64,000 nucleotides of DNA from an uncultured Desulfobulbaceae bacterium (lineage in GTDB: Bacteria; Desulfobacterota; Desulfobulbia; Desulfobulbales; BM004), in the NCBI GenBank assembly GCA_945787325.1, contig CALZHP010000002.1, positions 51,831-115,830 of the forward strand, written 5' to 3'. Position 1 is the first letter of the stretch; each line of letters opens with the position of its first letter. The notes under the pieces were generated by a model. That model was not told where the DNA came from and searched no databases. It saw only the letters and a list, made by a program, of their open reading frames with translations. The position numbers and the translations under genes are program-made. This document shows positions 20,466-26,725 of the stretch, one piece after another.

Positions 20466-21500
20466 ATGTCAATTGATGATATGTCATACAAATCCATGGG
20501 GTGGCGATTCTTAATAATTGCGGCAGCTTTTGTTGTTGTCGTAGCAGGCATGAAAGCTGCAGAACCCTTGATAGTACCTTTTCTGCTTGCTGCTTTTGTA
20601 GCTATTGTTTGTACGCCTCCTCTTTTCTGGTTGCAGCGAAAAGGGATTCCGCAGGTAATGGCACTTGTCATAGTTGTGATGAGTGTCATGTGCTTGGGCC
20701 TTCTTGTTGTTGCACTGATTGGAACTTCTTTAAAAGATTTCTCTAGTAACCTTCCCTTTTATCAGGAACGTCTTACAGAAAAAACATCCGAACTTGTAGC
20801 GTGGGTCAGCGGTTTTGGAATTAATTTATCTGACAAAAATCTACTTGAATATGTAAACCCCGGCGCCGCAATGGGTTTTGCGTCAACAATGTTCAGCGGC
20901 CTGGGAGGTGTGCTCAGCAACAGCTTCCTGATTATGCTAACAGTAATATTTATTTTATTTGAAGCGTCGAGTTTTCCCGGAAAACTACGAACCGCTCTTG
21001 GTGATCCGGATGCATCTTTGAAAAATTTTGAATTATTTTTAAGCAATGTAAACCAGTATATGGCAATTAAAACCTGGATAAGTCTTTTGACTGGTTTTCT
21101 TATAACCGTATGGTTGTTGATACTTGGTGTTGATTTTCCTTTATTGTGGGGCCTGCTTGCGTTTCTTCTAAATTTTGTTCCCAATATTGGATCCATCATA
21201 GCCGCGGTTCCAGCATTTCTGCTTGCATTTGTCCAGTTGGGAACAGGATCTGCTCTGCTTACGGGACTGGGATATGTTGTTGCCAATGTGGTTGTGGGAA
21301 ATGTTATCGAGCCACGCTTTATGGGGAGAGGCCTTGGATTGTCTACCCTGGTTGTTTTTGTTTCTTTGGTATTCTGGGGCTGGGTGTTGGGTCCTGTGGG
21401 CATGTTGCTCTCAGTTCCATTGACGATGACTGTAAAAATTGCTCTGGACAGCTATGAAGATACGCGGTGGATAGCAATACTGCTTGGTTCAGATTCATAG
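20466..21500 (+). CDS. AI-2E family transporter
   Basis: Multi-TM; LNFVPNIGS, GNVIEPRFMG, FWGWVLGPVGMLLSVPLT. Confidence 0.93.
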   Translation: MSIDDMSYKSMGWRFLIIAAAFVVVVAGMKAAEPLIVPFLLAAFVAIVCTPPLFWLQRKGIPQVMALVIVVMSVMCLGLLVVALIGTSLKDFSSNLPFYQERLTEKTSELVAWVSGFGINLSDKNLLEYVNPGAAMGFASTMFSGLGGVLSNSFLIMLTVIFILFEASSFPGKLRTALGDPDASLKNFELFLSNVNQYMAIKTWISLLTGFLITVWLLILGVDFPLLWGLLAFLLNFVPNIGSIIAAVPAFLLAFVQLGTGSALLTGLGYVVANVVVGNVIEPRFMGRGLGLSTLVVFVSLVFWGWVLGPVGMLLSVPLTMTVKIALDSYEDTRWIAILLGSDS

Positions 21501-21647: not shown

Positions 21648-21875
21648 ATGAGAAAGACTACTGAAAAAAATATTGTGTGCTACTGCTTTGGTTATACTGA
21701 AGATGATATTTTACATGATGCCATAAAGCATGGCCATTCAACAATTATGGAAAGAATAGCACGAGAAAAAAGTGTCGGAAAATGCAGCTGTATAGAAAAA
21801 AACCCGAAACGGCGATGATGCCTTGGGGATGTTCGCCAGGTGGTGAAAAGAATAAGTAATAGAAAAACGTTTTAG
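21648..21875 (+). CDS. BFD-like [2Fe-2S]-binding protein, probable selenoprotein (UGA at codon 57)
   Basis: Manual translation MRKTTEKNIVCYCFGYTEDDILHDAIKHGHSTIMERIAREKSVGKCSCIEKNPKRR-U-CLGDVRQVVKRISNRKTF; TGA at 21816-21818 sits at the first Cys of the family NPxGxCCLGxV motif; SECIS-like hairpin follows. Confidence 0.85.
21832..21847 (+). promoter_or_regulatory. Candidate bacterial SECIS hairpin
   Basis: TTCGCC-AGGT-GGTGAA; apical loop begins 19 nt after the UGA with G at loop position 2. Confidence 0.7.
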
Positions 21876-22202: not shown

Positions 22203-23093
22203 ATGTCGTCAATAGTTGCAGAAAAGGAACTTTATCGGGCCTGTCAGATTATATTCGGACTCGAAGCGAGTATCAGCCGTGAATTTCTTGAGTACCTCCA
22301 ACCATCAGGCATAAAATCCGCTTACAGAAAGAAAGCTCTAGAAACTCATCCGGACAGGGTCATACACTGTGATGAGTTAACCAGAAAAAAGAGCGAAGAC
22401 CTGTTCAGGACTATTCAACAGGCTTATGAAAATCTTAATTCCTATATAAAAGCCCGTGAAAGAGGCTTTTGTTTTTCTGCAAGGATCAATAATAATAGTA
22501 GCAATAACGATTTAAGAAAAAAAGAATGGCGGTTTTCGAGTAAGCAGAAGTATGATGGACACTTCTCTAAAGCCGGTGCTGGTGGTACGGATTACAAAGA
22601 AACTAAGAGCGGCAATAACTCCTCTGGTAGAAATGGACAGAAAATAATAAAGCCACAGCCGACTGAAAAACTTTACCACGGTCCCATTCCATCCTGTAGA
22701 CTATTGTTCGGCCGTTTTCTATACTATTCTGGGGTAATTAGGTGGCGTACCATAATAGACGCTCTGGTTTGGCAGACCAGTAAACGCCCCCGCCTGGGAG
22801 AAATCGGCTGCCGTTTTGGCTGGTTGTCTGAAGACGATACGTTGATGATTCTTAAAAACAGAAACAGGGAACATCCATTTGGCCGATCGGCTGTAGAGCT
22901 TGGTTTGCTTACAGAGGATCAATTAAATGCCATTCTTCTACAGCAGAAATTCACACAGAAAAAAATTGGGACATTTTTTGTTCAAAATGGAATGCTCTCA
23001 CCTGACAGTCTTAATGAGCAGATTATCAATCATAGAAAGCACAACTCCAGGTTTCCGAGGCAGGAATCAAGGGGTGGTTTCTTTAATCCTTGA
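22203..23093 (+). CDS. J-domain protein with C-terminal MshEN-like repeats
   Basis: IKSAYRKKALETHPD..FRTIQQAYENL (J-domain, HPD); four tandem (R/F/I)xG-x6-G-hh repeats in the C-terminal half. Confidence 0.85.
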   Translation: MSSIVAEKELYRACQIIFGLEASISREFLEYLQPSGIKSAYRKKALETHPDRVIHCDELTRKKSEDLFRTIQQAYENLNSYIKARERGFCFSARINNNSSNNDLRKKEWRFSSKQKYDGHFSKAGAGGTDYKETKSGNNSSGRNGQKIIKPQPTEKLYHGPIPSCRLLFGRFLYYSGVIRWRTIIDALVWQTSKRPRLGEIGCRFGWLSEDDTLMILKNRNREHPFGRSAVELGLLTEDQLNAILLQQKFTQKKIGTFFVQNGMLSPDSLNEQIINHRKHNSRFPRQESRGGFFNP

Positions 23094-25675: not shown

Positions 25676-26725
25676 ATGGACTTTTTTAAAAAGAAGACAT
25701 TGACCGGACTTGCCCGGACATGCGGCTGAGCAGCTAAAATAGGTCCGACAGTTCTGTCGGAAGCGCTTTCGGGACTTACACCACCTTCTGATCCCAGCCT
25801 GATGGTTGGATTCGACACAGCGGATGATGCGGCGGTGTATAAGTTGTCGCATGATATCGCCATGATCAATACGGTAGATTTTATTACCCCGCCGGTAGAT
25901 GATCCATACTGGTTCGGTCAGATATCTGCTGCCAACTCTATTTCGGATGTTTATTCTATGGGAGGAAAGCCTCTGACAGCACTAAACGTTGTTATGTTCC
26001 CGTCAAAACTTCTTGATATGGGAATTCTCAGAGATATCCTGCATGGAGGGCACGATAAGGTCGTTGAGGCGGGCGCATGCCTTGTCGGCGGTCATAGCGT
26101 GGATGATGAAGAGCCTAAGTACGGTCTCTGTGTCAATGGAACTGTGCATCCTGACAGAATTATAACTAATGCGGGATCAAGACCGGGTGACGCCCTCGTT
26201 TTGACAAAACCAATTGGCTCAGGTGTCCTTTTTAATGCCGTACGCTCCGGGAAGTTACCATTTAAAGAAATTGAAAAAGAGGTGCTTCCACAAATTGCAG
26301 CATTGAATGGACCGGCAATAGAAGCGGCACTTAATTTTGAACTCCATGCATGTACTGATATTACCGGGTTCGGTATTGCAGGTCATGCTCTTGAAGTTGC
26401 AATTGGCTGTGCTGGAAAGATTATCCTGGAATATGACAGACTTCCATTTTACCCTGATTCCCGGGAAATGTATGACAAGGGAGAGAGTACCGGTAGCAAC
26501 AAACCAAATCGCCAGATGAGCGCTGACTATCTGGTTCTTGAGAAGGCTCTTTCGAAAACAGATGAGGAATTACTTTTTGACCCACAAACTTCCGGAGGGT
26601 TATTACTTTCAGTTCCAGATTCACAGGCAGATGATCTCATAAGTGCGCTCACTGGTGCAGGAGTGAAAACTGCCGCCCGAATCGGCAAGATCGAGAAAGG
26701 CGCTTCGGAAATAATCGTGGTATAA
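25676..26725 (+). CDS. selD: Selenide, water dikinase; selenoprotein form (UGA at codon 18)
   Basis: ATG 25676 after GAGG: MDFFKKKTLTGLARTCG-U-AAKIGP continuing in frame into the ORF-track protein (DDAAVY, TVDFITP, DITGFG, DPQTSGGLL). Confidence 0.96.
25744..25761 (+). promoter_or_regulatory. SECIS hairpin of selD
   Basis: TCCGACA-GTTC-TGTCGGA perfect stem; loop starts with G, 21 nt after the UGA at 25727-25729. Confidence 0.8.

Follow-up and report, generated by a model that had tools for sequence, protein, structure and literature searches.

Selenoprotein families include, according to two reviews, a '(2Fe-2S)-binding protein (CopZ family) form 1', cd10141, for which one of the two, dated 2026, gives the motif GxUC (U, selenocysteine, Sec), and a 'form 2', which is the Csac_0668 family with a CU motif (PMC13188914; PMC9312934). 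In the available parts of both reviews, form 1 occupies a table row only, with nothing on its function or gene context, and is credited to Zhang & Gladyshev 2008 (PMC13188914; PMC9312934). The wording of form 1 is absent from the text and supplements of Zhang & Gladyshev 2008 that we examined, and likewise from Peng et al. 2016; the full-text literature that we searched, outside which most subscription papers fall, yielded no paper on BFD-like selenoproteins and, among the papers listed, none on BFD-like proteins in connection with arsenic. Here we analyse a stretch of 64,000 nucleotides from an uncultured Desulfobulbaceae bacterium (assembly GCA_945787325.1, contig CALZHP010000002.1, positions 51,831 to 115,830 of the forward strand; hereafter the window), in which a 75-codon open reading frame (ORF) with an in-frame TGA is, with high probability, a real gene of this catalogued, Sec-decoded family. 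The initial annotation of the window had allowed that the family might already be catalogued, and the form 1 entry with its GxUC motif, as it stands in the available parts of the reviews, bears this out. The family itself is thus already known, and what is new here is its ars and mer gene neighbourhoods and the covariation of its Sec insertion sequence (SECIS).

Form 1 has a BFD-like or CopZ-like domain with one Sec directly before a Cys, as does the family in the window. Indeed, the TGA of the window gene lies directly 5′ of a conserved Cys, after NPxGx, within a BFD-like domain, and the family consensus K-G-R-U-C fits GxUC. Placed by this motif and not by an example sequence, the window protein appears to fit form 1 as a new member of a catalogued, uncharacterised family. 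The proteins of NCBIfam NF047645, which NCBI annotates as 'putative iron-sulfur cluster-binding metallochaperone', and the Archaeoglobus fulgidus CopZ N-terminal domain (PDB 2hu9) share with it a homologous C-terminal half, CxC ... C ... NPxGxCC, and its fold, U57 of the window protein standing at the first C of the dyad; they differ in carrying an extra N-terminal zinc-binding domain (zf_CopZ), in being ~140-160 residues long or fused into longer proteins, and in having Cys for Sec. NF045877, the 'Csac_0668 family 2Fe-2S cluster-binding (seleno)protein' that corresponds to form 2, has Sec in the same dyad of the homologous domain, but in second position (C-U), whereas in the window protein Sec comes first (U-C). 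Bfd (PF04324; PDB 4e6k, 6e6r) resembles the window protein in its small helical [2Fe-2S] fold and N-terminal CxC, but has four Cys and neither a Sec-Cys dyad nor the NPxGx loop, and no bacterioferritin gene lies beside the window gene.

The ORF begins with ATG at 21648, has the TGA as codon 57 and ends with TAG at 21873-21875. With the TGA read as U, it encodes 75 residues, MRKTTEKNIVCYCFGYT ... GKCSCIEKNPKRR-U-CLGDVRQVVKRISNRKTF, and contains the string ..VCYCFGYT..; the frame ..VCYCFGYT..GKCSCIEKNPKRR-U-CLGDVRQVVKRISNRKTF proposed in the initial annotation, with 18 codons following the TGA, was recovered with the same count. Its features are as follows.

21648..21875, + strand: gene for a predicted 75-residue stand-alone BFD-like selenoprotein (ORF; 22 TGA-bearing homologues, 21 of them aligned; AlphaFold2 pLDDT 87.3; Bfd Z 5.8)
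21816..21818, + strand: in-frame TGA, read as Sec57, first position of the U-C dyad (the codon is TGA in all 21 genome sequences aligned and in 69 loci from metagenomes; Cys in CC homologues; aligns with Cys118 of 2hu9_A)
21819..21821, + strand: C58, the invariant Cys immediately 3′ of Sec (aligns with Cys119 of 2hu9_A)
21678..21686, + strand: C11-Y-C13, the first of the Cys pairs in the BFD-like domain (the two Cys columns are invariant; aligns with Cys75 and Cys77 of 2hu9_A)
21783..21791, + strand: C46-S-C48, middle Cys pair (C48 invariant and aligned with Cys109 of 2hu9_A; C46 at least 90% conserved and without a counterpart there)
21831..21848, + strand: SECIS hairpin with a 7-base-pair (bp) consensus helix (RNAalifold, covariation, absence in Cys homologues)

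In the window's own genome we identified selA, selB, selD and tRNA-Sec (614, 373.5, 333.5 and 75.3 bits, respectively), every one above its curated cut-off, which answers the question of selA, selB and selC that had been raised with the original proposal. The gene for selenophosphate synthetase, itself a selenoprotein gene, sits ~4 kb downstream of the Sec gene:

25676..26725, + strand: selD, selenophosphate synthetase gene with one TGA (25727-25729; TIGR00476 306.6 bits when only the sequence 3′ of the TGA is scored)

A second selB-like match in the same genome (contig C113, 2880-4211) covers model positions 194-581 only, scores 117.8 bits, below the cut-off, and lies near the contig end. General reassignment of TGA was rejected as a candidate: in-frame TGA is absent from neighbouring genes, 20466-21500 among them, and amt terminates at TGA.

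We searched 61 genomes (that of the window and 60 relatives) in six frames. Matches were found in 24 of them, and all 22 matches at E ≤ 7e-15, one of which is a further gene copy in the genome of the window, contain exactly one in-frame TGA each. We extracted and aligned 21 of these 22 (L035, a strong TGA match, was not caught by the extraction pattern, and the weak or partial matches L042-L044 and L046-L047 were left out). The TGA falls at the identical codon in all 21 aligned genome sequences, in which C11, C13, G29, S31, I37, C46, C48, N52, P53, U57 and C58 are invariant. Conservation extends beyond the TGA, with a consensus of CL(A/G)DV(R)QVV and at least 90% identity at L59, V62, V65 and V66. 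Furthermore, a scan of metagenome contigs with a pattern requiring TGA returned at least 120 stretches, and the full motif C-x-C ... NPxxx-U-C is present in 69 of the 80 loci fetched; the other 11, which do not have it, were dropped. Neither TAA nor TAG occurs at the Sec site among the relatives examined, genome and metagenome sequences alike. Two of the comparisons on which the initial annotation had staked its proposal, conservation past the TGA and the identity of the codon in relatives, therefore came out in its favour.

The window's own genome also contains a second gene copy, on contig C99 (L130:4460-4675; also L045:1501-1716), which is 56% identical, retains the TGA and the hairpin and is adjoined by a HigB/HigA pair and a TehB-like methyltransferase. 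It has a TAA four codons 5′ of the CYC motif with no ATG, GTG or TTG between, and a frame opened at the ATG lying six codons farther upstream terminates at this TAA. An assembly error or an unusual start might account for this, or the copy might be a pseudogene. In genome G007, a Sec form (L041:1087-1488) is extended C-terminally by a Cys-rich segment (CDGCG ... CRAC ... CGCSD) that ends at another TGA, and this extension may have arisen by fusion or may contain a second Sec.

A profile search over 1.84 billion representative proteins gave 1522 relatives with E ≤ 0.001, of which 884 remain when the threshold is tightened to 1e-10. We sorted 151 proteins by the residue at the Sec site: 92 have Cys-Cys, including the stand-alone ~70-residue proteins P0006, P0015 and P0021; 43 end exactly at the site, as truncated gene calls; ten have Trp, two have Arg, and four were left unclassified by the sorting pattern. 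Judging from the protein sequences alone, the ten Trp residues are presumably TGA codons translated as Trp by the gene caller, and the three relatives found in a separate protein homology search all have W at the site. A scan of genome contigs was queried with an alignment having Cys at the Sec site, so that it could find Cys-Cys forms only and serves as a control; it gave 80 loci, 78 of them with the motif, and all 80 sites within those 78 are Cys-Cys. By alignment, Sec/Cys pairing at the codon 57 position is firmly established, and the TGA takes the place of the first Cys of the CC dyad, as had been claimed, both against 2hu9 and in the alignment of Sec and Cys forms. The prediction that gene callers would miss or truncate such genes is likewise borne out by the 43 shortened proteins and the ten with Trp. 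The two Arg-bearing proteins, P0008 and P0009 (K-G-K-R-C and K-R-R-R-C), are close relatives that may be real variants or read errors, CGA being one base from TGA.

Downstream of the TGA, the window gene contains the hairpin TTCGCC-AGGT-GGTGAA noted in the initial annotation, with a 6-bp stem (5′ arm 21832-21837, loop 21838-21841, 3′ arm 21842-21847) that begins 13 nucleotides (nt) 3′ of the UGA and places the loop 19 nt from it, as claimed. The similarity in geometry to the selD SECIS of the window also holds: the selD hairpin (25744-25761; 7 bp; loop GUUC; z −2.69) has its loop 21 nt from the UGA, and both loops are of 4 nt. The hairpin of the window gene is the minimum free energy (MFE) structure once the first 12 nt past the UGA, which a ribosome stationed at the UGA would cover, are dropped, and represents a weak, A/U-rich variant of the family helix.

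The family helix is well defined by comparison. RNAalifold predicts the same helix unaided from the 21 aligned sequences, and 93.3% of helix cells are paired across 88 distinct sequences (95.2% in a separate count). In these 88 sequences, pair 30-43 is C-G in 64, U-A in 22, G-U in 2 and broken in none, the covariation score is reached by 0 of 500 shuffles, and pairing is much poorer in every slid register. Column 30 falls on the third, synonymous position of a Val codon and column 43 on the first base of an Asp, Asn, Lys or Glu codon; on these comparative grounds, the coupling of the two columns goes beyond what protein constraint alone explains. The metagenome pattern fixed columns 28 (purine), 29, 38, 40 and 41, and in the 67 metagenome rows both sides are free only for pairs 30-43, 31-42 and 34-39. 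In the 78 Cys-Cys loci, which belong to a more distant subfamily and so make a good if imperfect control, 48.4% of cells in the same columns are paired; at least six of the seven pairs form in 83 of 87 Sec forms versus 1 of 78 Cys-Cys loci, and the mean folding energy of the 42 nt downstream is −13.9 kcal/mol for Sec forms versus −7.8 kcal/mol for Cys-Cys forms. These comparisons across the family, and not the window copy alone, show the hairpin to be a SECIS. Together, the Sec machinery, the fixed TGA codon, the Sec/Cys pairing and the covarying hairpin indicate that TGA codon 57 almost certainly encodes Sec.

The family profile matches the A. fulgidus CopZ N-terminal domain (2hu9_A) with an E value of 6.9e-5, the Cys and Sec positions aligning as listed above. 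An AlphaFold2 model built with 68 sequences has four helices and a short strand (mean predicted local distance difference test score, pLDDT, 87.3; predicted template modelling score, pTM, 0.73). Foldseek places 2hu9_A at the top (probability 0.98, E 0.17) and Pseudomonas aeruginosa Bfd next, and VIA-align superposes 53 of the 57 residues of Bfd (4e6k_G) with Z 5.8 and a root-mean-square deviation of 2.4 Å, whereas 2hu9_A reaches Z 3.6. Figures of this size are modest, which is not surprising given how small the domain is. On the strength of the model, the window protein is a single BFD-like domain of Bfd-like fold. The long Cys form, in which the zf_CopZ domain is present, passes NF047645 with 124.1 bits, and the short Cys and Sec forms all score ~48-59 bits. 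By analogy with the solved proteins of this fold, binding of a [2Fe-2S] cluster is somewhat favoured for the window protein.

We compared the surroundings of 90 Sec-form loci, comprising 21 genome and 69 metagenome loci (26 of the latter shorter than 3 kb). There is no universal neighbour, and arsenic resistance is the most recurrent theme: ars genes lie within ~3.5 kb of 13 of the 90 loci, or 16 when ArsE-type thioredoxins are counted. Six of the 21 genome loci are in ars operons, with the following gene orders (SEC, the Sec gene).

L128: arsR, ArsP_1-type permease, thioredoxin, DsbD_TM, ACR3, arsC, SEC
L131: arsR, permease, rhodanese, thioredoxin, arsC, SEC
L132: arsD, arsA, arsC, SEC, arsM
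L134: arsR, permease, SEC, beside a divergent arsR-ACR3-arsM
L136: arsR, permease, ACR3, ArsB-like, arsC, SEC
L147: permease and arsR, divergent from SEC

The start codon of the Sec gene and the stop codon of arsC overlap as ATGA at three loci (L128, L131 and L132), and at L136 the two are separated by 5 nt. Among the 69 metagenome loci, seven have ACR3, ArsM, ArsC or permease genes within ~3 kb and three more have an ArsE-type thioredoxin only. Thioredoxin-fold and DsbD_TM neighbours recur around Sec forms, and one Sec-form locus adjoins a gene for SaoL, an organometallic lyase resembling MerB (144.8 bits; cut-off 140). The As(III) metallochaperone ArsD, which is small, Cys-rich and encoded within ars operons, offers no more than a possible functional analogy to the ars-linked Sec forms; L132 encodes both ArsD and the Sec protein, so that the two are not simple substitutes.

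Mercury genes recur around the Cys relatives. Of the 78 long Cys-form loci, 45 have MerA-like, MerB or MerR genes nearby; by type, MerA-like genes are near 22, MerB near 9, MerR near 21 and ArsR-family genes near 22, and one MerA is confirmed (590.9 bits against a cut-off of 454.45), the other MerA-like calls having been made by BLAST to this protein so that they may include other flavoprotein disulfide reductases. These two-domain Cys-Cys relatives (zf_CopZ plus BFD-like; L048-L127) thus sit mostly in loci of the mercury-resistance type and are frequent in metagenome-assembled genomes of Methanoperedens; fusions of the long Cys form to a CCxGP segment in the membrane and to an HMA domain also occur.

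Around the window copy, an AI-2E transporter gene lies upstream, and downstream come a gene for a protein with a DnaJ domain and a cyclic di-GMP motif, amt, glnB and then selD. The protein directly downstream (22203-23090) has a DnaJ domain by Pfam (32.9 bits) and an MshE-type cyclic di-GMP-binding motif by NCBIfam (56.5 bits). Elsewhere, 6 of the 69 metagenome loci (6 of the 90 Sec-form loci) have, immediately 3′ of the Sec gene and in its orientation, a gene for a protein of ~105 residues. The six have the word AWDIYLFY in common, and no match was found in Pfam for the four scanned or in NCBIfam for the one scanned. Their coordinates and strands are as follows.

L151:121-450, − strand: ~105-residue protein
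L157:2-268, − strand: ~105-residue protein
L181:1370-1693, + strand: ~105-residue protein
L212:470-862, + strand: ~105-residue protein
L223:5404-5712, − strand: ~105-residue protein
L225:1-333, − strand: ~105-residue protein

In the mechanism that we propose, SelB and tRNA-Sec would decode UGA codon 57 as Sec, directed by a short SECIS inside the coding sequence. Four of the residues C11, C13, C46, C48, U57 and C58 would ligate a [2Fe-2S] cluster in the manner of Bfd and of the CopZ N-terminal domain from A. fulgidus, and the Sec-Cys dyad would sit at or next to this cluster, giving a highly nucleophilic selenol. The selenol may bind or pass on a soft metal(loid), such as As(III), Hg(II) or Cu(I), or alternatively it may take part in thiol redox chemistry by cycling through a selenenyl-sulfide. 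The ars- and mer-type surroundings point to a small redox-active protein for soft metal(loid)s or reducing equivalents in which Sec would be the reactive or ligating atom. A role of the family in metal(loid) or thiol-redox handling is accordingly offered as a tentative reading that falls short of even odds, and it is less likely still for the window copy, since this copy has no ars- or mer-type neighbours.

A more specific reading, which we regard as doubtful, would make the stand-alone Sec form an unrecognised working part of ars operons, translationally coupled to thioredoxin-type ArsC. Its selenol-thiol dyad beside the [2Fe-2S] cluster would take As(III) from ArsC to efflux or methylation proteins, or would re-reduce ArsC. 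BFD domains resembling the CopZ N-terminal domain would then be general soft metal(loid) handlers, with Cys forms in mer loci and Sec forms in ars and organometal (Sao-type) loci, and the orphan window copy would be a housekeeping version of such chemistry.

Several features of the window copy and its family count against these assignments and functions. The window copy reads K-R-R-U-C, with R in place of G two residues before Sec. Its hairpin is weak alone (−6.7 kcal/mol, ~26% of the ensemble, z −1.04), has mismatched outer bases (G21831/A21848) and is not the MFE structure of the 45-nt stretch, for which a competing fold reaches −8.6 kcal/mol. The protein scores below threshold on every profile concerned: Pfam PF04324 Fer2_BFD gives 20 bits against a gathering threshold of 26 (E 9e-4, residues 9-49), NF047645 (CopZ_Nterm_CC) 50.3 bits against 100, over profile positions 80-137 of 138 only, and NF045877 (Csac_0668, CU) 28.8 bits against 190, over 93-158 of 161 positions. 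By these partial NCBIfam matches, the window protein is the BFD-like half of both families, as a stand-alone domain. No Shine-Dalgarno-like GGAG run occurs within 25 nt 5′ of the ATG, and a consensus scan gave no + strand promoter-like site 5′ of the gene and no terminator-like site. The ars link is found in a minority of loci (13-16 of 90), and genomes that are related do not count as independent cases. ACR3 and a weakly matching arsC-like gene of the same genome are on contigs other than that of the window copy, which has no ars or mer genes beside it. Among the sequencing runs listed there was no RNA run, and one DNA run, a marine sediment metagenome, had a share of 0.10.

The weakness of the hairpin in the window copy is also what one would expect if the TGA were a plain stop, giving a 56-residue product, with the downstream similarity left over from an ancestral Cys-form gene that has been truncated or is decaying; gene callers do end 43 of the 151 related proteins at the TGA, and the second copy in the genome may be broken at its 5′ end. 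We consider this very improbable. The codon is fixed as TGA, and never TAA or TAG, in the 21 aligned genome sequences and the 69 metagenome loci, the nine residues that follow are conserved, and the hairpin shows covariation and does not occur in Cys forms, so that a conserved tail with a covarying hairpin does not behave as a decaying one. The sub-threshold Fer2_BFD score and the ars and mer neighbourhoods would also suit a protein with no Fe-S cluster in vivo, in which three vicinal pairs (CxC, CxC and UC) serve as direct binding sites for soft metal(loid)s such as As(III), Hg(II) or Zn, much as in ArsD or a chaperone of the metallothionein type. Coordination by three thiolate or selenolate ligands is preferred by As(III). 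This explanation nevertheless appears improbable, because the fold and Cys spacing match two solved [2Fe-2S] proteins and NCBI curators label the sister families 2Fe-2S or iron-sulfur cluster-binding.

If a cluster is present, the role of the dyad has to be weighed. Sec57 itself might be one of the four [2Fe-2S] ligands, as the initial annotation had suggested, the Se ligation tuning the cluster potential and not binding substrate, a reading that we hold to be possible but rather unlikely. U57 and C58 are invariant with C11, C13 and C48 across 68 Sec and Cys forms, in which C46 is only ~90% conserved, and the sister family NF045877 carries Sec at the other dyad position ('CU'). The A. fulgidus domain reportedly holds a cluster and has no C46 equivalent, so that one residue of its CC dyad must complete that cluster. 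This residue is reportedly Cys119, the counterpart of C58, and not Cys118, the counterpart of U57. Bfd, in turn, aligns over its full length to model residues 8-74, and its second Cys pair falls near C46/C48 by spacing, which would make C11, C13, C46 and C48 the cluster set and leave the U-C dyad outside the canonical site. Taken as a whole, a 75-residue stand-alone BFD-like selenoprotein of CopZ-family form 1 is the best explanation of the locus and a likely one.

The main outcome is an annotation fix, together with a hint that the family handles As or Hg, and no new category is opened. Gene callers miss the gene or cut it at codon 56, and no NCBIfam model covers the short form above cut-off; yet the family is common, judged by its 884 representatives at the stricter threshold and the at least 120 TGA-form stretches in metagenomes. 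The ars/mer linkage and the question of the cluster ligands are the parts worth following. The repeated ATGA coupling to arsC and the occurrence of Cys relatives in mer operons provide a testable lead towards a Se-dependent step in As or Hg handling, which, if true, would extend recent views of how selenoproteins contribute to the detoxification of metals and metalloids.

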